Shown piece by piece: positions 1,988 through 41,700 of a DNA stretch of 64,000 bases. Numbering within the stretch: position 1 is the first letter of the stretch; every line of letters begins with the position of its first letter. Below the pieces are notes generated by a model. That model was not told where the DNA came from. It worked only from the letters and a program-made list of their open reading frames with translations, and did no database searches. A program made the translations under genes and the position numbers. The stretch lies in the NCBI GenBank assembly GCA_045600045.1, contig JAZRXD010000051.1:18740-82739 (forward strand), in the 5' to 3' direction. The DNA comes from Bacteroidales bacterium. Lineage in GTDB: Bacteria > Bacteroidota > Bacteroidia > Bacteroidales > UBA1715.

Positions 1988-1988
1988 A

Positions 1989-3522: not shown

Positions 3523-3588
3523 ACTGCAAAGAAAATCAATTTTTGCGAGAAAAAGATATTTTCTCAAATAGTTGTGGCGACAAGAATT

Positions 3589-15842: not shown

Positions 15843-16046
15843 TAAAAAATTTTCTCCCGTTAGTCCAATGAAATCGGGCATCGAAAAAGAAATTGTAAAA
15901 ATATTGTAACTTTTTGTGTGTCAATTTAGTCTTTGGTTTATACAGTTGAGTTCAAATTATTTGCTTTCTGCAAAAAAATGAATTATATTGCATAATTATA
16001 AAAAGTGTCAAAAAGACACTAAGTGTGGAATTTAAAACGTAGTTTT

Positions 16047-21802: not shown

Positions 21803-24800
21803 ATGCGAATGAAGAAATTTACTCTATTTGTTGTTTCGCTTCTTTTTGTGTTTGGTTCGTTTGCTGGAACTATTAAGTTGACAAAGCAAGAATATAACGG
21901 AAATTCGTATTATCAAGGAACATTGAAGATTAGTTTTTCGTCGGGAGTTCCTCAAATTGGTAATGTTTATCGTTTAAATTTCACAGGGGTTACAGCTGAC
22001 CATTTTATTGGCGAGTTGAGATTGGACATTGCTGATGTTTCTCCATACGCAAATTATTGGACCGAAATGAATCCGCAATATTCGATTTTGGCGCAAAATA
22101 TCAATCCTTGTGCCGAGGTATTTGCTTCTTCGGTTCGTTTGGGTGTTACTCAAACGGGTATGTATCCAAATTTGGGTTCCTATGTCGTTGTTATTCAAGC
22201 TTGGAATGCTATTGAAGGCGTTGATGAAGTAAATCTTTCGGTAAGCGGAATTTCTATGGTAAGAGAATCCGATAATCCTACCGCATGGTTCGAGGATTTC
22301 CCGTTAAGTGTGTACGATGTGCAAATTGGTGAAACGTCCGATTTGTCATCAATGATTTCTATGCGTGGCTATAAAGATTTAGGAAAATTCAGTAGTACCG
22401 ATGGTAATACATATCCAATATGGACTTCTGATGATGAAACAATCGCCAAGGTTGATGAAAATGGTGTTGTAATTGGTGTTGGAGAAGGTACGACTACGAT
22501 TCAGGTTAAAAAAGTTTTGGAAACCACAGTGGATTATATTGTTCAAAATGAAACCACTGGTTTGTACGAAGTGAAATATGCTGTAGGTACGAAACTTAAA
22601 GTTACTTTGAAACATACAGTTAATATCCGCAAGACAGCAAACATCGTTCTTCCGTGGAATGAATATGGAACCGATGTGGAAGGTATTGGTTATGTTGGTA
22701 TGAGTGACTATTGGCAATATGCCGATAAAGAAGCTGTGAACGAAGCTTTGGAGTCGTATGCCACAGGTTATTCTTCAACTTGGATTCCAACCGAAGGCGA
22801 TATGTTCTCATTGCACATTTCGGGAACCGCAAATAAAACTGGTACGTTGGAACTGGGACTTGTTGATGGTCGTGCGGAAGTAGATTATTGGGCAGAAATG
22901 TCTGATTTCGTAAAAGATTTGTCTGTTGTTGAAGGCGAAAAATTTGATTATACGATTGATTTGCCGATTAAAACAATTAAAAAAGGTGATGTTGATTTAA
23001 TCGCACCAGATTTGGTATTTGCATTTTTGCCAAGCGAAGGTAGTGTTGCGGGAATCGACAAGGGAATAGAATTTTATTTGGAAGAACATGATTGGACATT
23101 TGTTCCTGCTTCGAATTATTCGGTTTCTTTTGAAGAAGGTTCTTCAATGATGTTGAACGTGGGCGATTCACAAACTTTAACACTTGTGCTGAATAATCTT
23201 GCCGACGATGGTGTTTGGACATCTTCAAATGATGCTGTCGCAAGTGTAGTTGACGGAATGGTTACAGGTAAAGCCGCTGGTTCTGCTGTAATTACATATC
23301 GTGTTCAAGTTTCCGATAAACTTTCGTTTGCCGCTACATGCGACGTTACGGTTAATCAGAAAGGCATTTCGCCAATGCCTATTGTTTCAACCGATACAAT
23401 TATATATTGTATTGGTTCCGAGGCCGTTGCATTGACTGCCGAAGGCGAAGGTACATTGAATTGGTACGATTCCAAAAAAGTTAAGTTAGACGGGGTACCT
23501 ACACCGAATACAACAAATGCTGGATATACGACTTACTATGTTTCGCAAACAGTTGGAACCAACGAGGAAAGTGATTTAGCCAATATCGTAGTCTCTGTTC
23601 TTGAAAAGTTGGATGCTCCAACTGTCGATGCAACAACAAAAACGGTCTGTGCAGGAACACCTGCAAGTTTTACAGCTTCGGGTTATAGTAATTATGAATG
23701 GGTGAACGCAAGTAAATCTGTCGTTTCAACAAATAATACATTACATCAAACCGAAATGTCGGTTGGCACACGCACATTTTCTGTTTATGCTATTGATAAA
23801 TATGGTTGTAAGGGTGAGGCTACTACTGTAACATTGAATTTGAGTGCAGCTCCATCTATTTCGTTGTCGGGTGATTCGGAAATTGGTGTAGGCGAAGTTT
23901 ATACAGTAACAGCAAATTCAGAATCAGCCATCAAATCATACGAGTGGATGATTAACAGCATAAAAATGGAAGATGCTACTTCCGCTGATTTCTCAACTTC
24001 ATTCACTTCGGCAGGAACAATAAAAATTTCTGTCGTTGCAACCGATGAAAATGGTTGTGCCTCCACAACATCAACAATGGTAGCGGTAAGTTCTGCAAAC
24101 CAATCGCCAACGCCAATAGTTGCAAAAACAAGTTATACATATTGCCAAGGTACACAAAGTGAAACATTGTCGGCAACAGCTACAAGTGGAGCAACATTGA
24201 AATGGTATGATGGGTCGTTGAATTTGTTGGAAGAAGCTCCAACGCCTTCAACATTAACATACGGCGAGTCATATTATTATGTGTCGCAAGTTGTTAGTGG
24301 TATGGGTGAAAGTAGTAAAGTTGAAATTGTTGTTAATGTTACTTCTGGTCCATTTTTGTCATTGATTGCACCAGCTGCTATTATCCAAGGTGATTCTGTT
24401 ACGTTTGACGCTACTGCCGGATTCCAGGAAGGTACATTCATCTGGAGAGTTAATGGCGAGGAAATTTTTACCGAAGCATCTTCTACCGGTAAAAGTCAAT
24501 TGAAAACTAAATTTCCTGAACTTGGTGAATATATGTTGACTGTTGAACAGGCAACATCGGGTTCTTCTTGTAATGGTTTTGCTTCGCAAGTTGTAAGTGT
24601 CCGCGAACATCCAATGGCTTATTTCAAACAAAAAAGCTATATTTTGAGAGTCGGCGATACGTTGCACATCGAACCTGAATTCGTTTCGGTAACTGATAGA
24701 AGTAATGTCCGTTACAAACTTTGTAAATATAATGGTATAAACATTTCTACTCCGAATGATGGAACTTGTTATGTAATGGCTCCGTCGATAAGTAATGATA

Positions 24801-27800
24801 CTCTTATTCTGAACTTTGAATATTACGATAGGGGTTTGAATACTACCGTTTCATTGTATGATACTTGTGCTATTTCATCATATATGGATGAAACTTCTTT
24901 TGATATTCCTGAAGAAATACATCTTCCTACGGAATACTACAAAAATTTCACTGTGAAATCAACTATTCCTTCATATATGTACGATGTGACTTGGGAAGCT
25001 TCGACGGAAGGTCTTGCAACAATTACAGGTTCGATGGATTCCTACACAATCACTTCGTTGGAAGGAGTGAAGGAAGGTGTTGTTTTCTTTACGGGGACAG
25101 TAAAAATGAGAGACTACGATCAAAGTTGTACGAAAATAATTAAGGTTTTGATTAGCGATACTGTTGGCGTTCCTAGACCAAAGGTAGCTTCAAAATTGAT
25201 AAATTATTGCGTCGGAGATCCTACCGAAACATTGAGTGCAACTACTATAGAAGGAGGAACTTTGAAATGGGCAAGACCTTGGGGTGAGGTTTTGGCGGAA
25301 GCTCCAACTCCTTCGAGTGGAGAAGCACGTGAGGATGAATATGTTGTATCGCAGATAGTTGATGGCGAGGAAAGTCCTACGGTTACGGTTAAAGTCGTTA
25401 TCAATAGTATTCCTGAAATTTATTTCTATCCGCCAACTGCAGTTTATGTAGATTCTTTGGTGTATATGGAGGTTGGTTCATATCCAGAAGGAAAATATCT
25501 TTGGTCAACGGGTGAAAAGGCTGCAAGTGTTAATCAAACATACACTACTTTGGATCCTCAGACTATTACCGTCCAGGCAACAACAAATGCAGGTTGCGTA
25601 AATACTGCTACTCAGACTATAAAAGTAAAAGTTGCTCCGTCAACAACTGTTTCGTTCGAAAAATATGAATATACAATGAAGGTTGACGACACATTGACCA
25701 TTTCTCCGATTTTTGCCGATGAAACCATTTCGCAAACGAATCTTGAACCTTGGTCATCCGAATCGGAAATAGTTTCTTTCGATCAGGAAAATAATAAAAT
25801 TGGAGGCTTGGCACCTGGCACAGCCGATGTGGTTTATACTGTTTCGTTCAACGATTCTGAAACCGGAGCTTACGGAGATTTCGAAAAATATTTGACTATT
25901 GTGGTTAAACCAACTGTTTCGGAGCAACCAACAGTTTCAAAAACTTCTTATTCTTATTGTGTTGGAGCCGAATCGGAAGCGTTGTCGGCTACAGCTTCGG
26001 AAAACGGAATATTGAATTGGTATGATTCCGAAAATACAAAATTGGAATCAGCTCCAACTCCAAGTACCGAAGTTGCGGGAACTCAAACATATTTTGTTTC
26101 GCAGATTGTTGATGAATTAAAAGAAAGTGAAAAAGTTGAAATTACTGTTACGGTAAATCCGAATCCGGAATTGACGGTAAATTATCCTTCAACAATTTAT
26201 GTTGATTCTACAGTTACGCTGATTGCAACCACTAATGTTGATTGTGCTTTTTCATGGACTACCGGAACATCAGAACTTGAAAAGAATACTTCAAGTACTT
26301 CTGACGTTTCGTATTCTTCCACAGGCTCAAAATCTATTACGGTTCAAGCCTCAGATGAGGAATGTCTTACAACAAAAGATTTTTCAATCAATGTGAAAAA
26401 TGCACCATCAACAACACTTTCGTTTGTCGAGGAAAATTACTCGATGTATGTGGGCGATGCAATGACGGTTTCTCCTATATTCAGTGATGCAACTATTTCT
26501 CAAACAAACGAAACTCCTTGGTCTGGCAATTTCTCTTTCGTTACTGTCGATCAAACAACAAATGAATTCATAGGCGTTGCCGAAGGAACGGAGAATGTAA
26601 CATATACATTTGATTATCTTGATTCAGAAACTGGCGTAACGGGAACTGTTACTAAAATATTGTCGTTCGAAATCATTATGCCGTTGCCAAATGTTTCGGA
26701 AAATCCAACAGTTTCAAAAAAATCGTTTATCTATTGTGTTGGAAACGAAGCTGAAACATTGTCGGCCACAGCTTCTGAAAACGGAACGTTGAATTGGTAC
26801 GATTCTGAAAATACAAGATTGGAATCGGCTCCAACTCCAAGTACCGAAGTTGCTGGAATTCAATCATATTTCGTTTCTCAAACAATTGCGGGTAAGGAAG
26901 AAAGTGAAAAAGTTGAGATTTCAATCTCGGTTTATGCAAATCCAGTTATCACAGTTGATAATCCTTCTGTAGCGTATATTGATTCTACAATAGCTTTGAG
27001 TGCTTCGACTAACGAAGCTTGTAAGTTTACTTGGTCGGTTGGCAAATCAAGTGATGAACTAGTTTCTTCAAGTACTCAGACAATTTCGTATGCGACTGCA
27101 GGTATAAAAAATATTGACGTTGCTGCTGTAAGCGAATATTGTATTTCTACTCAAGAAATTTCAATTAAAGTTAAATCCGCTCCATCAACAACTATCTCGT
27201 TCATAAAGGAAAACTACTCAATGTATGTGGACGATATTGTGACGGTTAGTCCGACATTTAGCGACGAAACGATTTCTCAAACAAACGAAACTCCTTGGTC
27301 TGGTGAATTCGCATACGTTTCGGTTAATCAGTCAACAAATGTATTTACTGGTGTTGCCGAAGGAACAGAGGATATTACGTACAGATTTGATTATGTTGAT
27401 TCAGAAACTGGTGCAACCGGAACTATTACCAAAACATTGACATTCGAAGTTGCTTTGCCTGAACCAAATATTTCGGAAAAACCAACTGTTGAGCAAACGC
27501 GTTACGAATTTTGTTTGAACGGCGAATCGGTTGTTTTATCGGCTGTCGCTTCCGAAAACGGAACTTTATATTGGTACGATGCTCTTGGTGAATTATTGGA
27601 ATCGGCTCCAGTTCCAAATACCGAAACTGTTGGCGAAACAACATATTATGTTTCTCAAATTGTTGAAGGTTATGTTGAAAGTGGTCGTGTCGAAATTACA
27701 GCCGTAGTAAAAGCAAATCCTGAAGTTGTTTTGGATTATCCTGCTGTAGTATATGTTGATTCTGCGATAGCATTTACTGCATCGTGCGGAATTAAATCTG

Positions 27801-30800
27801 TATTTGTTTGGTCTTTAGGCAGTTATACTTCAAATCTTACAAACGAAAGTCGTTTTAGAACAGCATTTACCGATGCTGGAGAATACTCTCTTGGAATTTC
27901 TGTAACAACTGAAGAAGGCTGTTCGTTCGAAGTGGATCCTATGATTGTGAAAGCTAAATTTTCTCCAGAAGTGTCGTTTGACGCAGAATCATATTCAGTT
28001 CGTAAAGATGGTTCAATCACATTACAACCAAACTTTAATTATTTCGATTCGGAAATTGCTCCGGAATGGACGGTAGAAAATTCTTCGGTTTTGTCGGTTG
28101 AAAACGGCGTCGTTACTGGTCTTAACGAAGGAACAACAACTGTGACTTGTTCTGTTGACTATACTGACGAAGAAACAGGAATTAGTAAAATCTATTCTGC
28201 TCAATGTTCGGTTGAAGTTGTTGATATAGATGTTCCTAAACCAGTTGTCGCTTCTAAAACGTATTCTTATTGTGTGGGTAACGAGGCGCAGCAACTTATG
28301 GCATACGAAAGCGAAGATTGTACGTTGAACTGGTACGATGTTGATGGCTCTAAATTGGAGTCTGCTCCAACGCCAAGCACAGAAATTACAGGTACATATA
28401 ACTATTCGGTTTCGCAAACATTGAACGGTTTCGAAGGCGATAAAGTTGTTATTAGAGTTGTTGTAAATCCTCAACCTGAACTTTCGTTGAATGTAGCTTC
28501 CTCTAAAGTTTACACGAATACCGAAATACCTTTCGAGGCTTCTTCAACTGTTGCAGGATCGTATATGTGGAAAGTTGGAGATATGGAATTTTCTACGTTG
28601 AAAACAGCTAAAAAGACATTTCGTGCTGTTGGCGAATTTGATGTTTCTGTTCAAGTAACAACCGACAAAGGTTGCGTTGATTCAGCTAAGGTTGTAATGA
28701 CTGCAAAACCTGCTCCGATAATTACTTTGGGTAAAACTTCTTATTCGTTGTACGAAGGTGAAACAATTGAACTTTCTGCTTCAATAAAGAATTTCACTCC
28801 AACGGAAACTCCTGTTTGGTCTGTGGAAAATTCAACGATTGCTTCGGTAGAAAATGGGGTTGTTTCGGGTTTGAGTGTTGGAAAAACGACAGTCTCTTAC
28901 TCAACATATTATTTCGATGAAGAAACTCAGATTGGAAATACATATGCTGGCACAGCAACTTTGATTGTGAAGGAAAATGTTGAGGAACTTGTTTGTGCTT
29001 TGGATACATTGGAAATGTACGAAGGCGAAAGTCGTATTGTCGAAGCTGAAATCCATTCGGTGTTGTTATCTTCAAATTCATATCATTTGGAGGCTTCGAA
29101 CGAAAATTTGGTTGACGTAGTTGATAAAATGATTTCTGCCCGTGTTGAAGGTGAACTTGAAATTTATGCGATTTCCGATAAGAATCCTAATCTTCGCGAT
29201 ACGGTTTATCTTATTGTAAATAAATTCATTCCTGCCAAGGAACTTTCAATGCCGAAACAAATTACAATAAAAGTCGGACGTGACACAACATTGCCAGCTA
29301 CGATTATTCCATCGAATGCAACGTTGAAAAATATTTCGTTTATGGAAAAAGATGACGAAATCATTACCGTTTTGTCTGATGGAACTGTTGTGGGAAAAGC
29401 TCCTGGAACTTCAATAGCAACGGCATATACAAAAGAAGGTGTTTCTGCTCAAACACTTGTTTATGTTACGTCTAACAACGAGGATATTGTTAAAATTCGT
29501 TTGAACAACGGCGATGAAACTGTGTATTTGAAATCGGGCGAAATAAAGACAGTTTCTTGTCAAGTTTCTCCAACTACAATTAAAGCCAACGATTTACGTT
29601 GGTCTGTGAGTGATACCAGCGTCGTGACAGTTTCTCCAAGTGGTGTGTTGACTGCCAAGAAACCTGGCGGTGCATTTATGTTCATTTCGTATGGAATCAA
29701 AATCAGCGAACAATTGGCTGTGATTGTAACTAAAACGGTTGCTCCAACTGTTAATTTTATACCGAGTGTTATGATGCAACAACCTGGAAATCCTGTGAAA
29801 GTTGCTTTGCGTGACTATGTTTCCGATGATTCTACCGCATTCGAAAATTTGAAATTTGTATTCTCTGAAGATGAAAATATTGCTGTTTCGTTTGAAAACG
29901 ATTCCGCTGTGTTCTCATTGAAAAATTCAGAATTCATTGGCGAAACTAAAATCACAGTGACTGCAATCGACGATGAAAATTTAAAAACCTCGAGAACTGT
30001 TAAGGTTGTTGTGATTGAAAAACCAAACGAGGCTCCATCAATTGTGATGAATAGTGTGATAGTTCCTTATCAAAAATATACACAAGTTGTGATTGCCGAT
30101 ATGGCTGTTGATGATTATACGCCTTCAGCTGCGTTAAGCTTCCGTTACGAAGAAGGAGATAATCTTATGGTTAAGAACGTTCGTAATACGAATTTGAGAA
30201 TTTATGCTTTTGAAGAAGAATGGTCTGGTGTTGATTCTATCCATGTTTGGTTTACCGATGGTCATGGCGCCGAAACCGAAAGTTACATTCATGTGAAAGT
30301 TTTGGCTGAAGATGAAAATATGGCTCCGGTAATTTCTGCCATTCCTCAGCAAATGGAAAACGATACGATATTGTTCCCTGATATTGACCTTTCACAATAT
30401 GTAACCGATGATTACACGTCGCCTTCATCAATTGTTTGGACTGCCTCGACTTCGGAAAATGTTGCTGTGAAGATTACAGGCTCTCATGCCGAAATAACTG
30501 ATTTGAATGAATTCTGGCGTGGTGCCGAAATTATTACGTTCACGGCCATGGACCAAGGTGGTTTGACTTCGTCAATCGATGTTACATTCTTCCGTGAAAC
30601 AAAAACTACCGAAGTTGAGGAAGATTATGGTTGGTACGGAAAACCTATGGTGAATATTATTGCTACTCGTTTCTTCGGAACTCCAGATGAGGAATTCACG
30701 TTGATAGGTACATATTATGGTACAGATTGTTCTGGACGTTGGGAAATATCGGGTATCGACGAGTTGAAAAATCCTTCTGATTTGATTCAAATTTTGAATT

Positions 30801-32464
30801 TCGATACCACAGGAAACTACAACTTGAAATTCATTGTAATGTATGGTGAACAACACAACATTACATCGAAGGAACAAGATATGGATATTTATGGTGTTGA
30901 AGGTAAAAATCACGCTATTTGCTACGGCGACACAATTATTTTGAATGCAACCGATGGCGTTGATTCTTATTCATGGAGCACGGGTGAAACAAGCCAGTCA
31001 ATCGTTTTGAATCCGTTAAAAACAACCGAATATGTTTTGGAAATGACGAAGAAATCTGTTGTCCTTCGCGATACAATTGATTTGCGTGTTTCTGTTCCGG
31101 TAAGTTTGCCACAAGATTCGGTGATGTGTGATGGAACTGTTTATGAACTTGTCGCCGAAGGCGATGAATACGAATCGTACAATTGGAACATCGGCAAGAC
31201 AACCAAGTCAATCAAGATTCCTTCGGAAGTTGCTGTTTATTCGGTTGAAACAGTTGATGATTTAGGTTGCGTGAGCCGCGACACGTTTGCTGTAACTAAA
31301 ATCAATTCGTTGCCTCCTTTATTCTTGGGACGTGATACATCTGTTTGCGATAAACAAACACTTACTTTGGATGGTGGCGTAGGTTACGTTTATGAATGGG
31401 GTATCCAAAAAGAATCTGGTTTGGTATCATCGAACGAACAATCTGTTGTTTTGGATTCATCGGCTTACGTTATGTTGAAGATCACTGATGGAAATATGTG
31501 CGAAAGTTTCGATACTATCAACGTTACGTTCACATATCCTTATCCTGAAGAAATAGGTTTGATTACGTTTAACGAATCAAGTAAGAATTTGATTGTTGCT
31601 TGGGAACGCACTGTTGATGTGAATACTGAAAAATATCGTGTTGAACGTCTTGTTGACAATGTTAATTGGGAACAAGTTGGAAACGATGTTCCATTCTATT
31701 CATATGGTATTGTAGTTGATGAAGCTTCTAACTGCGAACAACGTGGTCAATATTATCGTTTGGTAACAACCGACGCTTGTGGCAACGAAGCTTTGAGTGG
31801 CGAATATCGTTCATCATATATGCAACCTATTGTTCATACTGTTGATGGTAAAATTAGTTTGACTTGGTGGACATATCAATCACCTCGCGAAGGTAATGTG
31901 CTTGGTAGTTATTTGTTGCGTGCAAAATCACCTGATGAACCAGCCGACGCCGACGAAATTGTTCCGGGTTACGAAACAATCGACGTTTTCCCAAGTCGTG
32001 ACGACCAAGTTGGTTGGACAGATTCCGAAAATCGTTACAAAACAAACGATATATTCCGTGTTGCTTTTATGCTTGACAAACCGGTGTTTGAGAATGCTTT
32101 TATAAATACGAATGGCGATGTGGTTGCGTACCAAACACAAAAATCTGAATCGGGACCATTTGCTATTGCAATTAGTAATATTGCCGAAGTGGAACGTGTT
32201 TCTATCGATGATACATTCCCAGCTGAAGTTGTTGTGTATCCAACAGTTGTTAAGGATGTAATCAATGTCGTGATTGTTTCCGACAATGTCGAAAACTACA
32301 CTGTTGAAGTTCTTAACGAAGCGGGACAAGTTGTTTCCTCAACCGAAACGGGCGAAGTAACTAACTATTCTATACAAATTCCAGCTCAAGGTTTAACACA
32401 AGGAATGTATAACGTACGTGTTTCATTACCAACAGCTTCGAAAACTGTAAAAGTGTTGAAATAG
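21803..32464 (+). CDS. giant T9SS surface protein, paralog 2 (3553 aa)
   Basis: Signal peptide (MKKFTLFVVSLLFVFGSFAG). Seven Ig-like YCxG..LSATA..LNWYD..APTPST..Y(Y/F)VSQ modules interleaved with PKD-like and Big_2-like domains. Same C-terminal cassette and CTD as paralog 1. Confidence 0.93.
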   Translation: MRMKKFTLFVVSLLFVFGSFAGTIKLTKQEYNGNSYYQGTLKISFSSGVPQIGNVYRLNFTGVTADHFIGELRLDIADVSPYANYWTEMNPQYSILAQNINPCAEVFASSVRLGVTQTGMYPNLGSYVVVIQAWNAIEGVDEVNLSVSGISMVRESDNPTAWFEDFPLSVYDVQIGETSDLSSMISMRGYKDLGKFSSTDGNTYPIWTSDDETIAKVDENGVVIGVGEGTTTIQVKKVLETTVDYIVQNETTGLYEVKYAVGTKLKVTLKHTVNIRKTANIVLPWNEYGTDVEGIGYVGMSDYWQYADKEAVNEALESYATGYSSTWIPTEGDMFSLHISGTANKTGTLELGLVDGRAEVDYWAEMSDFVKDLSVVEGEKFDYTIDLPIKTIKKGDVDLIAPDLVFAFLPSEGSVAGIDKGIEFYLEEHDWTFVPASNYSVSFEEGSSMMLNVGDSQTLTLVLNNLADDGVWTSSNDAVASVVDGMVTGKAAGSAVITYRVQVSDKLSFAATCDVTVNQKGISPMPIVSTDTIIYCIGSEAVALTAEGEGTLNWYDSKKVKLDGVPTPNTTNAGYTTYYVSQTVGTNEESDLANIVVSVLEKLDAPTVDATTKTVCAGTPASFTASGYSNYEWVNASKSVVSTNNTLHQTEMSVGTRTFSVYAIDKYGCKGEATTVTLNLSAAPSISLSGDSEIGVGEVYTVTANSESAIKSYEWMINSIKMEDATSADFSTSFTSAGTIKISVVATDENGCASTTSTMVAVSSANQSPTPIVAKTSYTYCQGTQSETLSATATSGATLKWYDGSLNLLEEAPTPSTLTYGESYYYVSQVVSGMGESSKVEIVVNVTSGPFLSLIAPAAIIQGDSVTFDATAGFQEGTFIWRVNGEEIFTEASSTGKSQLKTKFPELGEYMLTVEQATSGSSCNGFASQVVSVREHPMAYFKQKSYILRVGDTLHIEPEFVSVTDRSNVRYKLCKYNGINISTPNDGTCYVMAPSISNDTLILNFEYYDRGLNTTVSLYDTCAISSYMDETSFDIPEEIHLPTEYYKNFTVKSTIPSYMYDVTWEASTEGLATITGSMDSYTITSLEGVKEGVVFFTGTVKMRDYDQSCTKIIKVLISDTVGVPRPKVASKLINYCVGDPTETLSATTIEGGTLKWARPWGEVLAEAPTPSSGEAREDEYVVSQIVDGEESPTVTVKVVINSIPEIYFYPPTAVYVDSLVYMEVGSYPEGKYLWSTGEKAASVNQTYTTLDPQTITVQATTNAGCVNTATQTIKVKVAPSTTVSFEKYEYTMKVDDTLTISPIFADETISQTNLEPWSSESEIVSFDQENNKIGGLAPGTADVVYTVSFNDSETGAYGDFEKYLTIVVKPTVSEQPTVSKTSYSYCVGAESEALSATASENGILNWYDSENTKLESAPTPSTEVAGTQTYFVSQIVDELKESEKVEITVTVNPNPELTVNYPSTIYVDSTVTLIATTNVDCAFSWTTGTSELEKNTSSTSDVSYSSTGSKSITVQASDEECLTTKDFSINVKNAPSTTLSFVEENYSMYVGDAMTVSPIFSDATISQTNETPWSGNFSFVTVDQTTNEFIGVAEGTENVTYTFDYLDSETGVTGTVTKILSFEIIMPLPNVSENPTVSKKSFIYCVGNEAETLSATASENGTLNWYDSENTRLESAPTPSTEVAGIQSYFVSQTIAGKEESEKVEISISVYANPVITVDNPSVAYIDSTIALSASTNEACKFTWSVGKSSDELVSSSTQTISYATAGIKNIDVAAVSEYCISTQEISIKVKSAPSTTISFIKENYSMYVDDIVTVSPTFSDETISQTNETPWSGEFAYVSVNQSTNVFTGVAEGTEDITYRFDYVDSETGATGTITKTLTFEVALPEPNISEKPTVEQTRYEFCLNGESVVLSAVASENGTLYWYDALGELLESAPVPNTETVGETTYYVSQIVEGYVESGRVEITAVVKANPEVVLDYPAVVYVDSAIAFTASCGIKSVFVWSLGSYTSNLTNESRFRTAFTDAGEYSLGISVTTEEGCSFEVDPMIVKAKFSPEVSFDAESYSVRKDGSITLQPNFNYFDSEIAPEWTVENSSVLSVENGVVTGLNEGTTTVTCSVDYTDEETGISKIYSAQCSVEVVDIDVPKPVVASKTYSYCVGNEAQQLMAYESEDCTLNWYDVDGSKLESAPTPSTEITGTYNYSVSQTLNGFEGDKVVIRVVVNPQPELSLNVASSKVYTNTEIPFEASSTVAGSYMWKVGDMEFSTLKTAKKTFRAVGEFDVSVQVTTDKGCVDSAKVVMTAKPAPIITLGKTSYSLYEGETIELSASIKNFTPTETPVWSVENSTIASVENGVVSGLSVGKTTVSYSTYYFDEETQIGNTYAGTATLIVKENVEELVCALDTLEMYEGESRIVEAEIHSVLLSSNSYHLEASNENLVDVVDKMISARVEGELEIYAISDKNPNLRDTVYLIVNKFIPAKELSMPKQITIKVGRDTTLPATIIPSNATLKNISFMEKDDEIITVLSDGTVVGKAPGTSIATAYTKEGVSAQTLVYVTSNNEDIVKIRLNNGDETVYLKSGEIKTVSCQVSPTTIKANDLRWSVSDTSVVTVSPSGVLTAKKPGGAFMFISYGIKISEQLAVIVTKTVAPTVNFIPSVMMQQPGNPVKVALRDYVSDDSTAFENLKFVFSEDENIAVSFENDSAVFSLKNSEFIGETKITVTAIDDENLKTSRTVKVVVIEKPNEAPSIVMNSVIVPYQKYTQVVIADMAVDDYTPSAALSFRYEEGDNLMVKNVRNTNLRIYAFEEEWSGVDSIHVWFTDGHGAETESYIHVKVLAEDENMAPVISAIPQQMENDTILFPDIDLSQYVTDDYTSPSSIVWTASTSENVAVKITGSHAEITDLNEFWRGAEIITFTAMDQGGLTSSIDVTFFRETKTTEVEEDYGWYGKPMVNIIATRFFGTPDEEFTLIGTYYGTDCSGRWEISGIDELKNPSDLIQILNFDTTGNYNLKFIVMYGEQHNITSKEQDMDIYGVEGKNHAICYGDTIILNATDGVDSYSWSTGETSQSIVLNPLKTTEYVLEMTKKSVVLRDTIDLRVSVPVSLPQDSVMCDGTVYELVAEGDEYESYNWNIGKTTKSIKIPSEVAVYSVETVDDLGCVSRDTFAVTKINSLPPLFLGRDTSVCDKQTLTLDGGVGYVYEWGIQKESGLVSSNEQSVVLDSSAYVMLKITDGNMCESFDTINVTFTYPYPEEIGLITFNESSKNLIVAWERTVDVNTEKYRVERLVDNVNWEQVGNDVPFYSYGIVVDEASNCEQRGQYYRLVTTDACGNEALSGEYRSSYMQPIVHTVDGKISLTWWTYQSPREGNVLGSYLLRAKSPDEPADADEIVPGYETIDVFPSRDDQVGWTDSENRYKTNDIFRVAFMLDKPVFENAFINTNGDVVAYQTQKSESGPFAIAISNIAEVERVSIDDTFPAEVVVYPTVVKDVINVVIVSDNVENYTVEVLNEAGQVVSSTETGEVTNYSIQIPAQGLTQGMYNVRVSLPTASKTVKVLK
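25910..28222 (+). repeat. in-frame tandem repeat of tri-domain modules (unit lengths 777, 777 and 759 nt)
   Basis: Unit starts at 25910 (PTVSEQPTVSKTSYSYC), 26687 (PNVSENPTVSKKSFIYC) and 27464 (PNISEKPTVEQTRYEFC), with long stretches of near-identical DNA between the first two. More diverged units flank it at about 25160-25909 and 28223-28985. Confidence 0.9.
28990..32464 (+). repeat. paralogous C-terminal cassette, copy 2 (boundaries approximate)
   Basis: Colinear with 18003-21518. Examples are VYVTSN(D/N)ED(V/I)VKIRLNNGD, APVISAIPQQ, YPYPEEIG, YRLVTTD(G/A)CGN and KSESGPFAIAISNIAEVE. Confidence 0.8.
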
Positions 32465-32716: not shown

Positions 32717-35700
32717 ATGAAAAAGATTTTATTAGTTCTAACCACGTTGTTGTTTGCTTTTGCAACATTTGCTGAAGAAGCAAAATACGTCTATTATTCT
32801 TCAGAAAGTAGCGTGATAGTTGGTGTTGGTTCTGGCAATGAAAAACCAAAAGGTGTTGATATTTGGATTTCAATTTATGGTTTTATGGTAGAGGACGCAA
32901 CAGTTTACGCCGAAGGAAATCTTTCTGCCATTGGCGAAGCGACATTAGTTGATGGTAAATATTATCGTTTAGAACTATCAAATAGTAAAGGAACTACTTC
33001 TGGTGAAGTCGTGTATTCTTATACTGGTGGCGGAGCAACTCAATATACTGTACTCGTTGAATTGCACAATGCTGAATTGTTTCTTAATGGGAATCCGGTA
33101 AAGCAAGAAGATATAATTCCTGTTATGATTAATAGGCCTTACGAAGTGTCTGTTCGAGTTGACAATGTTGATTCTGTTACTTGGAGTATAATGCCAAAGG
33201 ATGTGGCGTGTTCAATAACTGAAATGAATGGCGAAACCGATTCTATTGCACAGTTCAAGTTCGAGAAAGAGTACAAAAAAGTTGAATTAATTTGTAACTT
33301 ATGGACTGGCGATGGAGTTTTTGATGTAAGAACTGTATATGTTGCTGCGGTAGATCCTACTAAACCTACTATTGTTGCGGATACAAATTATGTTTGCACT
33401 GATAATGTTTATCAATATATTTCCTTTACGAATTTCGTATCGTTACCCGTGGGTGCTGACGAGTCTTATAAATTAAATTGGTACGATAGAGAAGATGCGC
33501 TAAGGGCTGATGCAACTTCTGATTTCTGGCTTGCAGACTATAAAGAAGAAGAATTTGTGACGAAATACGTATCGTTGTCACGCGATGGAGTTGAGAGTAA
33601 AAAATATCCGGTTGTAATAAACCTTGTTAAACTTCCGAAGTTAGCTGAAAGTAGTATTCTTCAAGCTTGTGTTGGTTCAGAACAAAAATTATCTCTTACT
33701 ATGGATTCCAAAGATCCAGATGAAAATTTTATTTGGTATGAGTATGGATCCGACGAAGTTTTAGGAACAGGCAAAACGTTTGAACCTGAAATTACATCAA
33801 TAGGTGAAAATGTATATTACGAGGTTGAATATAAAAAAGGAGGAGAGAATGGATGCTCGATTAGAGGTTACGTCGATCCAGTTACACTTTATAAGGACAC
33901 GGTAGTAGTTACTTATACCGAAAAATTGGTTCATGGCGCTCACGTGGTAGAACTTGTTGCTGAATCTAATCCACTATATTCTTGTGGTTGGTATTGTCCT
34001 TCTTATAAAAGCATGTGGTCTTCTGGTGAAGATGAATTCGATGAGATCAACGAAGAAATGGGTACTGCTAGAATTAGTTTCACAACACCAGGAACAAAAA
34101 CTATTTCATGCTTAGTTCAGGCTAGCGATGGTTGTTCTATGACCAAAGATGTGAAAATTACAGTCCCAGATTATTCAAATCAATATACATTCCGCGCTGA
34201 TAAAATTGTGTTGCAATCTATCGAAAAGTGGAATATACAGTTATACAACAAAGTTGGCAAACTAGCTGACGTTGACTATAAATTGAAAGTAAGCTATTCA
34301 AATCCTGAAGCTGAGAAATATTTCTATTTCCCTGAAGATTCAAGTTGTGTAAAGGCAGTGTCGCCAAGCGACGAATCGTATTCTGCTACAATCCAAGCCG
34401 TAGATGCTGATTCCGAAGTTTTAGCAACGCTTATCGTTGTTATTCCAGAACACTATACTGCAGTTGTTCAAAAACAAGTAGCAAAAGTCAATCCAGCAGA
34501 AGATGATGGCGAATATCAAAATTGTGTGGCTAAATATGAATTTGAATTGGGAAGTGCCTACAATGTAGATATATTGGTAGAAAGTGACGAAGATGTCGTA
34601 GTTGATCATTTTGAATATGGTGATTTTGATGTTCTCGAAGTGCGAGATGGTCAAATATTCACATTGGCAGAAGGTGGAGAATATTTCAATGCAAGAATGA
34701 GCAACGACTCCGTTATCTCTATGTATGTAAATGTTGTTGCTACGGTTGACAAATGGGCTGTGAATGCCAAAAACGTTGAAATGAATACTGGCACTATATA
34801 TATGATGAGTGTTAAAAACGTATATGGCGACGAAGTTAGCGAGTTTGTTGATTTTGATTTGATTGAAGGCAACGGTTATACTAGTAATTGTAATTTCTAT
34901 GCGGCAGAAGAAGCAGGAACTGCTCAGGTTGTCGCTTCCTACAAAGGTGAAATTATCGATACAATTAATTTTGTTGTCAAACAAGGTCATGAATATCGTT
35001 TTGAACCATCCTTTGAAGATACAATTTTGTTTACTGGCGATTCTTTGAAAGTTTCTATAGTTGACGAAAAGGGAAATACAATTCCGTTTGCTCAAAATGT
35101 TATGTTTGGAGAATCACAATACTCGGAAAACGGAATGTTTTATGCTAACAAAGAAGGTGTGTTCCCTGTTTCAGCTTTCGGATTGGATGAATATGGAAAT
35201 TTTTTCCAAATATCTCCTATGCCTGAAATTACTGTGATAGATCCGTCATCTTTCACAATAAATGAAACAGAAATAAACGTTTCTCTTTTTGGTTATGAAG
35301 AATTTTATTGTGAGTATTTTGGGAAATATGGTTCTTTAATAAAGGAACGTATAACTTTTGCGTTGGATAATACCGATAAACCAGTAGCTTGGCCAGATGA
35401 AGAAGAAATAAACCAAGGAGAGGTTTATTATCAATTTTATTATGGATATCTTGGTATAAACGTTGGCTCCGATACTTTGCGAATTTCTGTTGGTGGTAGA
35501 CAACTTTTTGCTGTTCCGGTTACGGTTTATGAGGCATTTAGTCTTGAGCCAACTGAAGTGAAGAATATGCATGTTGGCGAAGAAATTGATTTTTCATGCA
35601 AATATGATGGCGAAGAACTTGGTTCTTCCGTTGTCTCATGGATAGCTGAAGCTCCAATGTCTCCAATCGATGATAATCCACCAATGCCATGTGCTCATTT

Positions 35701-38700
35701 TGAAGATGGTACTTTATATGCCGATGCGGAGGGCTCGGTTAATATTGTGGCAATAATTAGCAATGCGCCAGTTCTAATTGATGGAGAACTAAAAGAAGGC
35801 AACCATATTATTCAAGGACCAAAGGTTACAATTACTCAACCTTCATACTATTTATATTTAGCGTCGGGAACAGAAGATTTGACGGTAAACAAAGATACGG
35901 CAACGTACTATGTTTATGATATGAATAGTGACCCAGAGCATGGTGAACCAGCACAAATAGCTTTATTCGATGTTGAACAAAACTTTAATGAATTTGCTCA
36001 AATCCAATGGAGTTTCACCGATGATTTAAAAGGAATAAAAGTGTGGGCTACCGGTAATGCTTCGTTAACGGGTATGATGAGATTTTCGGTATTAGAGGGA
36101 GATGAAATTATTGAAAATGCAGTCAATAAAAAAGTTAAAGCTACATATAGTGGAATTAATTATGAAGTTGCTTCTATAATGTTCATGTCATTGGATTACA
36201 ACAATCAGGAATTGTATGATGTCTATCCTGAACCATTCCCTGCTGATTATGAAATAATGGTTGAAGATTCTTCTGTTGTTTCGTTTAAAGAAGGTATGGT
36301 TACTGCTTTGGATTATGGACATACACGCATAAATGTAACAAACCAATATGGTCTTGTTGCATATACCGATGTGTATGTAGTGAGCGATATTTTTATGTTG
36401 TATGGTCCTAAAATTTTATATGCCGATGGAAATCCATGTAATGAAAAATATAGCGTGTCATATTTAGAAGAAACAGAGTATGGCATTGAAGAAAATGAAA
36501 TTGTGGAGGCAAAATTTAGATCATCTGAAGAATCGATTCTTTCTTTTGCTGATGGAGTTGTAACTCCTCTTGACGAAGGCACAGTTCAAGTTTATGCTTA
36601 TATTTCTACGCTTGATGGCGATTTAGTAGTAGCACAAAAATCGGTTACGGTTGTCAAACAAATGAAAGCTCCTGAATTCAGTAACAATATTTCATATTGT
36701 GAAGGTTCCGAGCCAGCAAATGTTAATCCAACATACGACTTTGCAACACTTGTTTGGTACGACAACGATGGTGAGGTTGTAGAACAACCTAAATTCTCGG
36801 AATTGTCTGCAGGTTCTTATGTATATTATGTAAATCAAAAAACGAAGGAAGATTACATTGGCGAGTTAGATCTGAAAGAAAGCGAGAAAGTTGAATTCAA
36901 ATTCGAAGTGCTCGCATATCCAGAGGTTCCTGTTTTGAATATGGAAAGCCAAATCGTTTGCTCCGAAGACGAACTTGAAGCATTTTCAGTAACAAACTAC
37001 GACAAAACTGTTTTCATTAACTGGTTAGTTAATGGCGAATATGTTAAAGACAATAAATCGGAAGAAAATACTTATATGCCTGTTCGCATGGACGGTCAAA
37101 TGTCTGTTCAAGCTGCGGTAGAATTGAATGGCTGTGTTAGTTATTCTAAAACAGCTTCGGTTGTTGTAAATAAAATTGAAGTTCCACAAATAGAATTCGA
37201 AGCTGGTATAAATGAATTTTATGTTGGTGAAGAATTTTCTATTTCAGCAACAAATATCGACGAAACAGAATATGACGTAAAATGGATTATAAACGACAAC
37301 GAATACGAAGGCTCAAAAGTTAGTGTCGCATTTAATGATGCAGCTCGTTACGATTTTGCCTGCTTCGCAGCCAATAAAACTACTGGTTGTGTTGGTGAAA
37401 CCGACAGTGCGGTTGTTGTGAAAGCATACGAACAAATGGAACTACCGGGTGTTGAACCAGAATTCCAATCAATCTCATATTGTGAAGGTGACCTAGTTGA
37501 ATTCCCTGTTTGGACAACTTATGATTTTGCAATATTAAAATGGTATGATGAAAAAGGTAATGAGATTTCAGGTCAAGTTTCAGCTGTTTTGCCAGTCGGT
37601 GATCATAAAGTTTTTGTGAGCCAAGCTCCAAATAAAAAGTACGAAGGATATTTAATAGAAAGTGAAAAAGTTGAGATTTTGGTTATCGTTCATCCTCATC
37701 CTGACGAACCTTTGTTGAACACTTATGAACAGAAAGTTTGCTCCGAATCGGACATCTTACCATTCGAAGTTACTAACAAATCTGATGACGTAGATTATCA
37801 ATGGTATGTAAATAAAGGCTATGTAACTTCGGGTACGACAACGTTTTTGCCTAACTTAACGAGCGAAGTATTAAATATTAAAGTATGTGCTGTTAGTAAT
37901 GGTTGTCCGATTTCTTCACAAATTGCTGTAGTTGAAGCTGTCGCTGCGGTAACTCCACAAATCATATTCGCAAAGGGTTCAAACGAAGTTCTTGTTGGCG
38001 AAACTGTTGATTTGTCAGTTCCTGGTGTTGATGATAACAACTATGATATAGAATGGTTAATTAACGAAACGAAATATACTGGTGCTAAGATTTCGGTAAC
38101 ATTTAAAGATGCAGGCACCTACAATGTTGTCTGCTATGCTTCCGAAAAAACTACTGGTTGTCAAGGTCAAGCAGAGGAAAAAGTTATTGTTGATTTCAAC
38201 GGACAAATTTCTGCTCCATACGTAAAATCTCCTGAAAACGTAGTTTGTTTGACTGCTGGCAGTGCTGTATTTATGGATATTTTTGCTGCTCCAACTTCGG
38301 AATTGGCAGAATTAAAGTGGTACGATGAAACAGGCAATGCATTGGAAAAAACACCTGAGGTTTCACAACTTGGAACAACTACTTATTATGTAAGTCAAGT
38401 AATCAAAGGTGAAAAACCTATCGAAAGCGAGAAAGTGAAAGTTTCGGTTTCTACATATTATGTTCCAACTCCAACTTTGAATATGTACGACCAAAAATTG
38501 TGCGATTCTAAGGAAATTGCTCCGTTTGTTGCTTCATCGAACTATCAAGTTAAATGGTATCAAAACGGACTGGAAGTAGCTACGGGTTCGGTATATTCTC
38601 CAATACTTTCCGATGCTGCTAAATCAGAATATAATGTTGTTGCATACGATGAAAAGACAGGTTGTCAAAGTGATGTTGTAACAACTACGGTTACATTCGG

Positions 38701-41700
38701 TACTCCTGTTGTTCCTGAAATTATTTTTGCAAACGAAAAATTACAAATTGCAAAAGGTGAACCTGTTGAAATGTCTGCAAACATCGATACTGAATCTTAC
38801 GCAATCGTTTGGATTGTAAATGGTCAAAAATTGCAAGGCGAAACAGTTACAGTTGGTTTCGATGAAGCTGGTTCTTACGATGTAGTTTGTCAATCAATCC
38901 AAAAAAATACTGGCTGTTCCGCTGAAAAAACAGCAACAATCACGGTTGAAGAAAGTGTGGTTCCTGTAACTTCTATTGCAATTGATGCTGAATCTCTTGA
39001 AATGTATGTCGGTAACAAACAAACACTTGCTGTTTCTGTTGTCCCTTCATTCGCTACCGACCAAACATACACCATGACGGTTGAAAATTCCGCCATAGCA
39101 GAAATTCGCGGTAATACGGTTTATGCTTTGGCTGCAGGAACAACATTGGTGAATGTTGTGTCGAACGAAAATCCTGAAGTTTCCACTTCAATTGAATTGA
39201 ACGTGAAAGATGGTTATGTTCCTGTAACTGAAATCGACGCTCCTAAATATGTTGTCTTGGTTCCTGGTGAAGTAAGAAATTTGGATGTTAAAGTTTATCC
39301 TCAAAATGCTACAAACAAAGAATTGACTTATAAAGCTGGTAGCTCATTGTATGAAGTAGATAGTGAAGGTACGATTACCGCTTCGGAAATAAATGAGGGT
39401 TTTGCTGAAATGACAATTTCTTCAAAAGATGGTGTTGCTGCAACAGTTATGGTTTATGTAACATCTTCGGAAGAAGACATTGAAGATTTTGATGCTCCTG
39501 CTGTTGTGGTGGTAAAAGTTGGTGAATCGAAAACAATATCTTATTCGATAGCTACCGTTTCTGCCAAAGTGAACACTGCTAAATTCGTTATGAGCGATTC
39601 AGACATTGCTTTATGCGAAAATGGTGTTGTAACAGGTCTTCAAGCAGGTGAAACTACATTGACACTTACTATAGGCGACATCTCGAAAAATATTTCGGTT
39701 ATAGTCAATAAATCCGATGCTCCAATTCTTAATTTGCCTAAGGAAATTCATATCTCGAACGTTCGTGAAAATTCTGATTTGAAGAGTCTTGAAATTGGAA
39801 CAGCATTGATTCCTATTTCAAAATATATTTCTGATGATAACACTCCATTCGAAAACTTGAAGATAGAGGCTGTATCAAGCGATGAAGCAGTTTCTGTTTC
39901 GATAGATGAAAATGGTAAATTGTTCGTTAATGCCGGCGAATTTATCGGTACAGTTGATGTTACACTTACGGTAACCGATGTTGACGAATTGACTTCTACA
40001 GGTTCTTTCAAATTGATTGTAGAAGAATTAATCAATCAAGCTCCGGTTCTTCTTGTCGATGTAATCAAGGTTAAATACAATCAAAATGTATATGTGAATC
40101 TTTCCGACATCGCTTCCGACGATTACACAGCAGTTGAAGATTTGTTGTTCGAATTCAACGCTGAAAAAGTTGAAGTTGAATTGAAAGGCAATGAATTACG
40201 TTTGAAATCAACAGAACCGACACTTACATCTGATGTGTTGAATGTGAAAGTTACCGATATGTATGGTAAGGTTTTGGATGGAACAATTGCATTGGAAATT
40301 GCTGCTGCTCCAAATCAAGCTCCTGTGATTTCTGCAATTTCTACTCAAGTGGAAACTGATGCAGAACCATTTGTAGCTTTGAATTTGACAAAATATGTTA
40401 CCGATGATTACACATCTCCATCGTCAATTATGTGGTCGGCAACTCAATCAAATAACATTGCAGTTTCGATTGTTGACGGTATTGCAAAACCTATAGTTTT
40501 GAATTCATTTTGGAATGGTGTTGAAGCAATCACATTCACTGCAAAAGATGATGAAGGTTTGACAGATACAGTAGTTGTTTACTATCAACGTACCGTTTCT
40601 CAACAGGATTCTTATATGCCAAAATGGGAAGGCGTTCCAACTGTAACAATCTCAACAATGCGTCAAATTGGTGTGCCGGGCGATGCTTTCGTTTTGATGG
40701 CAAATATTTCAAGTTTCGATTGTTCTTGGGAATGGAATATTCCTGGTGCCAACGGTATTGATCCAACTTCGTTGATGCAAACAATAACATTCGATCAACC
40801 AGGTGTTTATCCTGTTTCGTTGACTGTTACTTCTGCCGATGAAAAATACTCAATCACAGCTGACTTGGCTATTCAATTGACAGTTGTTGGTGTTCAAGAA
40901 CGTAATCTTTCAATTTGCCAAGGTCAATCCGTTGTCTTGTCTGCTTCGGAAGGTTTGACTTCATACTTCTGGTCAACCGATGAGGTTTCTTCTGCAATTA
41001 GTGTACGTCCGGAAACAACAACAACTTATGCAGTAAAAATGAAGAAAGGAATGTTTACAATGACTGATAGCGTTGTTGTAACAGTTTCAGTTCCTGTTTC
41101 GTTGATTGAAGATTCTGTAATGTGTGCTGGAACAACTTATGAACTTGAAGCTCAAGGTGATTATGTATCGTATTACTGGAATACAAATTCTCAGGAAAGA
41201 TCAATCGTGATTCCTGCCGAGGTTGCAGAATACTCGGTATTTGCAATTGATGAAATGCGTTGTGCAAGTGTTGACACATTTAATGTGACGAAGGTTAATG
41301 AATTGCCAACAATTGATTTGGGTGAAGATCAAACTCCTTGCGATGGCGAAACCGTAACACTTGACGCTGGTGCTGGTTTCGACTATTTGTGGAGCAATGG
41401 TTCAACTGAACAACAAGTTGCTTTGACAGGTTCTACTAACACAATGTGGGTCCGCATTATCGACGAAAATAAATGTATAAACTCCGATACAGTAACAGTT
41501 GCATTCAAGTATCCATACGCGGAACAAATCGGTGTTGCAACATTCAGTGAAACAACTAATCATGTGATTTTAGCTTGGGAAAAGACAGTTGATGTAAATA
41601 CTGTTAAATATAGAATCGAACGCGAAACCGGTGTAACCGACAATTGGGAACAAGTTGGCGAAGATGTTCTATTCAGCGAACCAGGTATAGTTGTAGATGA

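Follow-up and report, generated by a model that had tools for sequence, protein, structure and literature searches.

A constant C-terminal cassette shared by three tandem giant Ig-like proteins of a Bacteroidales bacterium: an old, selected module and candidate stalk

Cargo proteins of T9SS type A lose their sorting domain to the PorU sortase, after which the newly made C-terminus is attached to a glycolipid of the cell surface. Type A CTD cargo with PorU anchoring has been described for the gingipains of Porphyromonas gingivalis and for Prevotella intermedia (PMC4560394, PMC11969387), with cleavage in the coil that separates the sorting domain from the last domain of the mature protein (PMC11969387). 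Only a short PT/GI preference is seen at cleavage in P. intermedia (PMC4560394, PMC11969387), and cleavage in P. gingivalis is described as sequence-independent (PMC4804311). Giant T9SS substrates of tens of Ig-like repeats are also known. These include the SprB-type adhesins, which end in a type B sorting domain, and GhpA (PDB 9flp, 9flw, 9fly), seven chains of which build the Aureispira grappling hook; its domains carry conserved cysteines with disulfides between neighbouring domains, and its gene is accompanied by ghpB and ghpC (bioRxiv 10.1101/2024.01.29.577165).

The three genes described here, g1, g2 and g3, lie in tandem on the + strand of a 64,000-nucleotide stretch of a Bacteroidales contig (the window; Table 1). 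Like gingipains and P. intermedia cargo, their products have a Sec signal peptide, a TIGR04183/PF18962 beta-sandwich above cut-off and a disordered linker leading from the last mature domain to the sorting domain. In contrast to these, they are non-enzymatic Ig-like arrays of 1,800-3,550 aa, and a near-invariant motif of 17 residues stands ahead of the linker. They share with SprB the giant size and the tens of Ig-like repeats but not the sorting domain, which is of type A. With GhpA they have in common, in addition, conserved cysteines, and GhpA is the best structural match of the piece running from the Cys units to the sorting domain; however, GhpA is known as a heptamer, whereas g1-g3 are known from sequence and predicted monomer models.

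Table 1. Features of the three giant genes and of their C-terminal cassettes (positions in the window)
Feature	Position	Strand	Description
g1	16023-21518	+	ORF, 1831 aa; signal-peptide-like N-terminus; TIGR04183 C-terminus
g2	21803-32464	+	ORF, 3553 aa; predicted T9SS type A cargo
g3	32717-42415	+	ORF, 3232 aa; predicted T9SS type A cargo of deeper clade B
g1 cassette copy	18009-21515	+	residues 663-1831; end-to-end alignment with g2 cassette
g2 cassette (reference)	28994-32461	+	residues 2398-3553, 1,156 residues
g3 cassette copy	38981-42412	+	residues 2089-3232
Three Big_2-type Ig domains, g2	28994-29224, 29225-29500, 29501-29737	+	Pfam Big_2 on units 2 and 3
Three acidic cadherin-like units, g2	29738-30025, 30026-30319, 30320-30601	+	Big_9, AlphaFold2, Foldseek
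PKD-like unit, g2	30602-30898	+	homologous to g3 unit with Pfam PKD match
Three Cys-containing Ig-like units, g2	30899-31102, 31103-31306, 31307-31540	+	Ig_7 matches
FN3-like domain a (FN3a), g2	31541-31825	+	AWERTVDVNT...YRVER...YYRLVTTDACGNE; seven-strand model
Second sandwich (FN3b), g2	31826-32140	+	variable acidic insert; model strands, residues 319-411
Motif KSESGPFAIAISNIAEVE	g2 32141-32194; g1 21186-21239; g3 42086-42139	+	just before sorting domain
T9SS type A sorting domain, g2	32234-32461	+	PF18962, TIGR04183

The original prediction held that the three C-terminal segments are colinear at the protein level, and they align end to end over ~1,156 residues. BLASTP returned a single colinear C-terminal alignment per gene pair, each with E = 0 (g1 413-1831 with g2 2145-3553, 46.5% identity; g1 433-1831 with g3 1856-3232, 36.7%; g2 with g3, 31%). 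For the cassettes themselves, identity to g2 is 51% for g1 (1175 columns, end to end) and 37% for g3 (1178 columns, query 4-1156), with 37-40% for comparisons against g3. g1 and g2 can also be aligned over some 250 aa 5′ of the cassette, if only weakly (middle stretch, 16-25%), and as this region consists of repeated Ig_7/PKD modules, the boundary proposed earlier corresponds to a real module edge. The proposed starts were right within two or three codons, 18003 being in frame and 28990 and 38965 each 2 nt off frame. All the peptides quoted as common to the segments were found, with small differences in g3 (YISDDNTPFENL and SYFWSTD) and g2 (YRLVTTDACGN), and the example of one peptide written in different codons is exact (gaatcaggaccattcgcaattgct from 21192, gaatcgggaccatttgctattgca from 32147, ESGPFAIA from both).

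The cassette is composed, in order, of three Big_2 domains, three cadherin-like units, a PKD-like unit, three disulfide-type Ig units, two FN3-like sandwiches, the motif and the sorting domain. Of the fold labels given previously, Big_2, cadherin-like, PKD-like and Cys Ig-like hold, and FN3-like is a tentative one; since most domains fall below Pfam thresholds, the fold classes rest on structures predicted from 14 aligned sequences. Two pieces were modelled, piece A (the three acidic units and the PKD-like unit) and piece B (the Cys units to the sorting domain), with mean pLDDT of 87 and 83.5, respectively, and both are all-beta. Foldseek TM-scores reach just 0.13-0.29, which is expected of flexible chains of several domains, so that fold matches identify domain classes and not a specific relative. 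When single cassette pieces were searched, neither the acidic units nor the Cys units nor FN3a/FN3b had a significant Pfam match, the sorting domain was the sole match in NCBIfam, and a PDB sequence-profile search with piece B matched only the mirolase sorting domain (E = 0.035).

Among the individual domains, units 2 and 3 score 27.0 and 27.3 bits with Big_2 (PF02368, cut-off 22.8), while unit 1 has no Big_2 match in Pfam and just a weak HL_N-beta match. The Big_2 units may be counted as two or three, Pfam reaching its cut-off for two. The PKD family matches the g3 protein with 34.7 bits (cut-off 23.5), the best stretch, residues 2643-2709, lying in the g3 unit homologous to the PKD-like unit of g2; PKD and PKD_4 are each found in 2/14 family members, and the unit is modelled all-beta. 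Ig_7 (PF19081) is found at the Cys units of 6/14 members and a K319L-like PKD in 5/14, and C8, C77, C124, C150 and C201 (piece B numbering) are invariant in the family. This Cys-unit stretch is the part common to many other Bacteroidota giants. Where a single FN3-like unit had been announced before the CTD, two sandwich domains separate the Cys units from the sorting domain. An FN3 fold is a seven-strand sandwich with a strand-B Trp and Tyr in strands C and F; FN3a is modelled with seven strands (residues 219-299), its AW..., Y.VER and YYRLVTTD..GN elements follow the expected FN3 order, and its structural matches to Ig/FN3 arrays are multi-domain. FN3b is the most variable stretch of the cassette (21-31% identity). 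Neither has a match in Pfam, FN3 (PF00041) included.

The acidic units carry YV(S/T)DDxT, (S/T)AxDxxG and N-x-A-P linker motifs, in which N97, A99, P100, N194, P197 and the DD pairs are invariant. All 14 family members match the bacterial Big_9 family (PF17963, best E 1.4e-10). With piece A, the top 50/50 PDB matches in Foldseek are cadherin or protocadherin ectodomain arrays (EC1-EC4; E 4e-14 to 4e-11), and the pLDDT-87 model has cadherin-type beta-sandwich repeats in tandem. Unlike cadherins, the units have no sequence match to Pfam Cadherin (PF00028 and relatives); Cadherin_5 was seen in one member with E = 0.094, and the best protocadherin match in a PDB profile search was weak (E = 0.007). 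Cadherin Ca2+ sites are built from DxNDNxP, DxD and DRE motifs, which the N-x-A-P linkers and the DD and DxxG motifs of the cassette recall. These invariant motifs are compatible with Ca2+ binding at the cadherin-like linkers, and we suggest that it may occur there.

Evidence for export comes from both ends of the proteins. TIGR04183 scores 25.2 bits for g1 and 26.7 for g2 and g3 (cut-off 23), and PF18962 is found in 14/14 family members (best E 6.5e-11). The signal peptides of g1, g2 and g3, read by eye from the translations (MRKFYLFVVAALFAAVSFAQ, MKKFTLFVVSLLFVFGSFAG and MKKILLVLTTLLFAFATFAE), show a basic N-terminus, a hydrophobic core and an A-x-A-like or F-A end. The same genome encodes PorU (NF033707, 1061 bits, cut-off 420) and SprA (TIGR04189, 2332 bits, cut-off 200). 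With sorting domain, signal peptide and machinery present, g1, g2 and g3 are predicted to be T9SS type A CTD cargo.

The ESGPF...SNIAE peptide had been listed as part of the cassette. It is not specific to it: the motif also stands ahead of the sorting domain in >100 other protein clusters. In these proteins, the sharply conserved motif K-x-[ED]-S-G-P-[FY]-S-x-[SA]-x-S-N-[ILM]-A-E takes the form ESGPFAIAISNIAE, and it has 2.5-4.3 bits vs <1 bit in the flanks; its 17-residue near-invariant form is L-K-[SAT]-[ED]-S-G-P-[FY]-S-x-[SA]-[LIM]-S-N-[ILM]-A-E, and E417-E430 are invariant in the cassette family. In this genome, 9 ORFs carry it 90-106 aa before their C-terminus, and it is pre-terminal in 114/118 occurrences among 141 distant matches (median 104 aa from the C-terminus), preceding both Por_Secre_tail and DUF6383 end domains. 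AlphaFold2 assigns it low confidence (pLDDT 49-58), and the linker behind it falls below 50. Three other CTD cargo proteins of the window lack the motif, so T9SS export does not generally depend on it. Literature searches with the motif strings, or for conserved elements preceding the CTD, returned nothing relevant, and the motif is apparently undescribed so far. We tentatively propose, as a possibility on the less likely side, that it serves as a signal dedicated to recognition, cleavage and attachment by the PorU complex in many Bacteroidales T9SS cargo, or as a docking strand for an anchoring partner.

The suggestion that the cassette defines a family holds. Representatives of ~37 protein clusters align over all 1,156 residues, from the first residue on, and in every one the cassette is C-terminal, as a discrete terminal module behind N-terminal parts of 662-3,174 residues in full-length relatives. 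These clusters are confined to MAGs of the same genus and family; the cassette occurs in 11/13 same-genus genomes and at ~30% identity in sister genera. Public records name the family just ‘Ig-like domain-containing protein’. Only the last ~300 aa are common to other cargo: a profile starting at FN3a matches over positions 1 to ~115-135 in 44/208 genera of the order, and because no match was found outside the order in a phylum-wide genome sample, the FN3a/FN3b/motif module appears order-restricted in the sampled genomes. The tandem order of an A-type gene followed by a B-type gene is kept in genomes G003, G011 and G006. A 439-aa gene (43097-44416) considered as a cognate partner has no homologue behind the arrays of these three genomes and was discarded in that role. 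The upstream 376-aa CTD protein (12718-13848) alone recurs, adjoining the G006 array with 66% identity. A related-locus search of the genome contigs with a single 637-aa protein gave no match.

The cassettes had been described as old copies free of recent gene conversion, and several measures agree. NG86 dS between copies is 1.1-1.5, that is, saturated; nucleotide identity is 53-61% and the longest stretch of identical DNA measures 31 nt. At identical residues the same codon is used in 51-58% of cases, where codon usage by itself would give 48%. A tree of 26 cassettes, from this genome and relatives, places g3 in one genus-wide clade and g1 and g2 in the other, where each adjoins a different copy of genome G006, and AU tests rejected monophyly of g1 + g2 (p = 0.013) and of all three copies (p = 3e-5). 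The duplications are therefore old: the split of the g3 type from the g1/g2 type predates the genus, and the g1/g2 split predates divergence from at least one sister species. Tandem genes in the same orientation do favour conversion, and the slight excess of shared codons points the same way, so one could imagine that concerted evolution, rather than selection on old paralogs, keeps the copies similar. This is very improbable and effectively already refuted by the short identical runs, the low nucleotide identity, the greater proximity of each copy to copies of other genomes than to its neighbours and the AU tests. Concerning purifying selection, the comparison proposed at the outset, dN/dS between paralogs (0.32-0.55, NG86), is uninterpretable because dS is saturated (>1), but omega is 0.04-0.17 in ortholog pairs whose dS is 0.2-0.7. 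All copies are held by purifying selection, without homogenisation.

The reading we favour, with a probability of roughly three in four, is that each giant consists of a Sec signal peptide, a long variable N-terminal Ig-like array and the constant 1,156-residue cassette, old and under selection, which would act as a stalk holding variable tips. As PorU removes the sorting domain and the new C-terminus is glycolipid-linked, the cassette would be the cell-proximal part, a fixed stalk keeping lineage-variable, presumably adhesive, binding tips away from the cell surface, with disulfides, and probably also Ca2+ at the cadherin-like linkers, to stiffen it. A conserved stalk under variable tips is an ordinary design among adhesin families. 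The anchoring or partner-binding function originally ascribed to the three cassettes in common is an inference. An omega down to 0.04, low for a mere spacer, hints that the cassette also does something beyond distance-keeping.

Alternatively, the cassette might serve mainly in export and attachment. FN3b, the motif and the sorting domain would together make up a signal dedicated to the T9SS attachment complex, with the rest of the cassette carried along; the contrast in conservation between motif and flanks, its regular distance from the C-terminus, its presence ahead of two kinds of end domain and a low-confidence prediction resembling that of a linear motif needing a partner would all agree with this. 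Yet it is the last ~300 aa only that other cargo share, and the upstream 850 aa, equally colinear and conserved in the family, are left unexplained; with three CTD cargo of the window also lacking the motif, we consider this account unlikely. Slightly less likely still is that the cassettes are interfaces for assembly, with stalks of one paralog or of different paralogs bundling side by side into a multi-stranded fibre by analogy with the seven GhpA chains, so that one fibre could display several different tips. GhpA fragments make up 8 of the best 28 PDB matches of piece B in Foldseek, including ranks 1, 2 and 4 (E 7e-16 to 2e-9); among the invariant cysteines, the PKD unit, Cys unit 1 and FN3a have one unpaired residue each, and the very low omega would suit a lateral packing surface. 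The GhpA match is nonetheless generic for Ig arrays, with just 13-19% identity and TM-scores of 0.25-0.38, and further matches of piece B are to other Ig/FN3 arrays. No PorP, PorE or OmpA family match was found in the flanking genes, whereas ghpB and ghpC accompany ghpA, and a lateral interface between paralog stalks 37-51% identical would be poorly conserved.

Giant T9SS surface proteins take up much of the coding capacity of uncultured gut/rumen-type Bacteroidales, and almost all of this share is unannotated. A sharply bounded, selectively maintained stalk of 1,156 residues gives annotators a usable family definition, and its boundary shows where constructs can be cut, tips for binding assays and stalk for display. 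The junction motif is the more general point. If the proposal made for it is true, in either version, the motif would be a Gram-negative counterpart of LPXTG-type sorting motifs, and this would explain why it is kept unchanged in the three giants and in at least six other proteins of the genome with different end domains; as a PorU signal, it would differ from the situation in P. gingivalis, where cleavage is described as sequence-independent. A processing or anchoring signal of this kind would offer a sequence handle on cargo recognition by the attachment complex, for a subset of T9SS cargo, and a simple prediction of the mature C-terminus for hundreds of proteins.

The giant T9SS cargo genes g1, g2 and g3 are consecutive and lie on the same strand of the window, and the N-terminus of each product is signal-peptide-like. 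BLASTP gave one colinear C-terminal alignment for every pair (E = 0 each). Against the g2 cassette, the shared C-terminal region taken as reference (residues 2398-3553), g1 aligned over the full length with 51% identity and g3 with 37%, in agreement with the protein-level colinearity of the original prediction. The peptides quoted there were all seen in the three-way alignment, apart from slight variation in g3 and g2, and the DNA strings of its codon example, ESGPFAIA, were located exactly at 21192 and 32147. The proposed left boundary is also real: in public data, about 37 cluster representatives align with the whole g2 cassette, starting within its first few residues. The cassette was C-terminal in every case, and the region N-terminal to it ranged from 662 to 3,174 residues in full-length members.

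The window corresponds to C51:18740-82739 of the source genome (2.5 Mb, 103 contigs, 93% complete). Both the PorU sortase (1061 bits against a cut-off of 420) and the SprA translocon (2332 bits) are encoded in this genome, and further T9SS cargo, including a GH44/CBM6 enzyme, is found near g1-g3. Upstream of the array lies a 376-aa protein with a T9SS C-terminal sorting domain (CTD), whose homologue (66% identical) adjoins the giant-gene array of the related genome G006. No other flanking gene recurs there, the downstream 439-aa gene included. Many more giant ORFs (2,700-5,917 aa) occur across contigs of the 2.5-Mb genome, and ORFs of this kind take up a very large part of its coding capacity. 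The tails of three of five examples (C57, C15, C69) resemble the cassette sorting-domain profile (E 1.4e-8 to 1.4e-3), compared with E 0.46 and 0.9 for C21 and C66.

Features of the window and related ORFs (C plus number, contig)
Feature	Location	Strand	Basis
g1 ORF, 1831 aa	16023-21518	+	ORF call, translation
g2 ORF, 3553 aa	21803-32464	+	ORF call, translation
g3 ORF, 3232 aa	32717-42415	+	ORF call, translation
376-aa CTD protein	12718-13848		
439-aa gene	43097-44416		
Junction motif copies	21186-21239, 32141-32194, 42086-42139	+	
Invariant Cys without partner in own domain: PKD-like unit (GTDCSG), Cys unit 1 (ICYG), FN3a (TTDxCGN)	30602-31102, 31541-31825		
Example giant ORFs elsewhere in genome	C21:9892-27642, C57:266-11413, C15:47990-58153, C69:15168-25376, C66:490-9747		
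Second-family members	C41:5551-12120, C81:346-7293	-	
Second-family members	C16:546-5966, C67:2-535, C37:15711-18200	+	
Third G006 giant (L038/L039), 3,553 aa	G006:C1:119488-130146	-	

Pfam alone recognized Big_2 in two of the three first units, PKD on the g3 unit, the sorting domain and little else. When 14 family members were scanned, Big_9 was found in all 14 in the segment of piece A (three acidic units and the PKD-like unit; best E 1.4e-10), and the Cys-unit segment matched Ig_7 in six and K319L-like PKD in five. AlphaFold2 models, built on 14-row alignments, were all-beta for piece A (mean pLDDT 87) and for piece B, which runs from the Cys units to the protein end (mean pLDDT 83.5). The 50 best PDB matches of piece A were without exception cadherin or protocadherin ectodomain arrays (E down to 4e-14). 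The Big_2, cadherin-like, PKD-like and Cys Ig-like labels first proposed are thus borne out. In the acidic units the N-x-A-P linkers and the DD and DxxG motifs are all invariant and would be reminiscent of cadherin Ca2+ sites. For piece B the best matches were fragments of the Aureispira grappling-hook protein GhpA, which is secreted by the T9SS, and after them eukaryotic Ig/FN3 receptors. TM-scores were low for both pieces, as expected of flexible bead chains, and the matches of these predicted models point to fold classes and not to specific relatives. An FN3-like domain is also predicted between the Cys units and the CTD, but two sandwiches are found there and not one: FN3a, a seven-strand FN3-like domain with AWERT...YRVER...YYRLVTTDxCGN, and FN3b, more variable and with an acidic insert. 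Three invariant Cys have no partner in their own domain; by analogy with the GhpA stem, they may form inter-domain disulfides.

The cassette defines a family. In its entirety it occurs only in the genus, with 2-3 copies in each of 11 of the 13 genomes, and, at ~30% identity, in sister genera belonging to the family. When a profile covered FN3a, FN3b and the junction motif but not the sorting domain, full-length matches within the order were confined to its own family, with one near-full match in another; FN3a by itself was found in 44 of the order's 208 genera. Beyond the order, 400 genomes sampled from the phylum gave no match. Among 1.84 billion representative proteins, 1,565 matched the profile at E <= 1e-3; the number fell to 245 at a limit of 1e-10 and to 20 at 1e-30. 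Many matches cover the entire profile and stop 85-95 residues short of the C-terminus.

The three copies are old. NG86 dS among them is saturated (1.1-1.5), identical residues use the same codon in 51-58% of cases compared to 48% expected from codon usage, and no stretch of identical nucleotides exceeds 31 nt. Because of this saturation, the paralog dN/dS values (0.32-0.55) are untrustworthy, and the comparison originally proposed as a test of purifying selection does not serve. The selection itself is clear from cassettes of 13 same-genus and 4 same-family genomes, where pairs with unsaturated dS (0.2-0.7) gave omega 0.04-0.17. In a maximum-likelihood tree of 26 cassettes, two deep clades are both genus-wide, with g3 in clade B and g1 and g2 in clade A; inside clade A, g2 groups with one G006 copy (SH-aLRT 98) and g1 with another (SH-aLRT 84). 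Constraining g1 and g2 together cost 38 log-likelihood units (AU p = 0.013), and constraining all three cost 477 (p = 3e-5). The duplications therefore predate speciation and homogenisation is absent, which upholds the earlier view of old copies without recent gene conversion. An A-type gene followed by a B-type gene is found in the same order in G003, G011 and G006. Directly upstream of these genes in G006 lies a third giant, also of 3,553 aa, with a different C-terminus (...GVYIVAVGNQTFMVVVK) and no match to the cassette query; array composition therefore varies between species.

The ESGPF...SNIAE peptide had been counted as a cassette feature, but ESGPFAIAISNIAE is not exclusive to it. K[AS]ESGPF..A.SNIAE occurs in nine ORFs of the genome, 90-106 residues from the C-terminus, and six of them (two on C16, one each on C37, C41, C67 and C81) are other proteins just ~25% identical to the giants. 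Two of these that were scanned (C41, C37) carry DUF6383 above cut-off as end domain, not Por_Secre_tail. Large proteins of 830-2316 aa form a second family, which has in common with the giants the terminal module alone, at ~25% identity: a Cys unit (YLWSNGSTE), FN3a (ISATDxCGNE), FN3b and the motif. In the 141 best distant hits 118 occurrences were found, 114 of them no more than 130 residues away from the C-terminus (median 104), preceding Por_Secre_tail or DUF6383 end domains; in 415,000 residues of reversed-sequence controls the motif was absent. In the logo, 17 residues stand out at 2.5-4.3 bits, L-K-[SAT]-[ED]-S-G-P-[FY]-S-x-[SA]-[LIM]-S-N-[ILM]-A-E, with flanks below 1 bit; the search pattern had set G and P in advance, but left K, S, N and E free. 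Since three further CTD proteins in the window do not carry it, the motif marks a subset of cargo. No Pfam model was found for it, and literature searches found no description of it.

At the motif, the model shows a short low-confidence strand (pLDDT 49-58), then a linker (pLDDT <50), then the sorting domain. PorU cleavage sites of Prevotella intermedia lie in coil of the same kind, with a conserved Ile at +2 and Asn tolerated at +1 (PMC11969387), a pattern that S|N-I-A-E of the motif would match. The motif might be a processing or docking signal, and it offers the best lead for further work.

Taken together, g1-g3 form a paralog family of probable T9SS surface proteins that is old and kept by selection, with variable tips on what is probably a constant cell-proximal stalk; this architecture is ordinary for bacterial adhesins. 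It is conceivable that the stalk bundles in the manner of GhpA, the top structural match of piece B. From T9SS biology, the cassette would function in anchoring and as a spacer.
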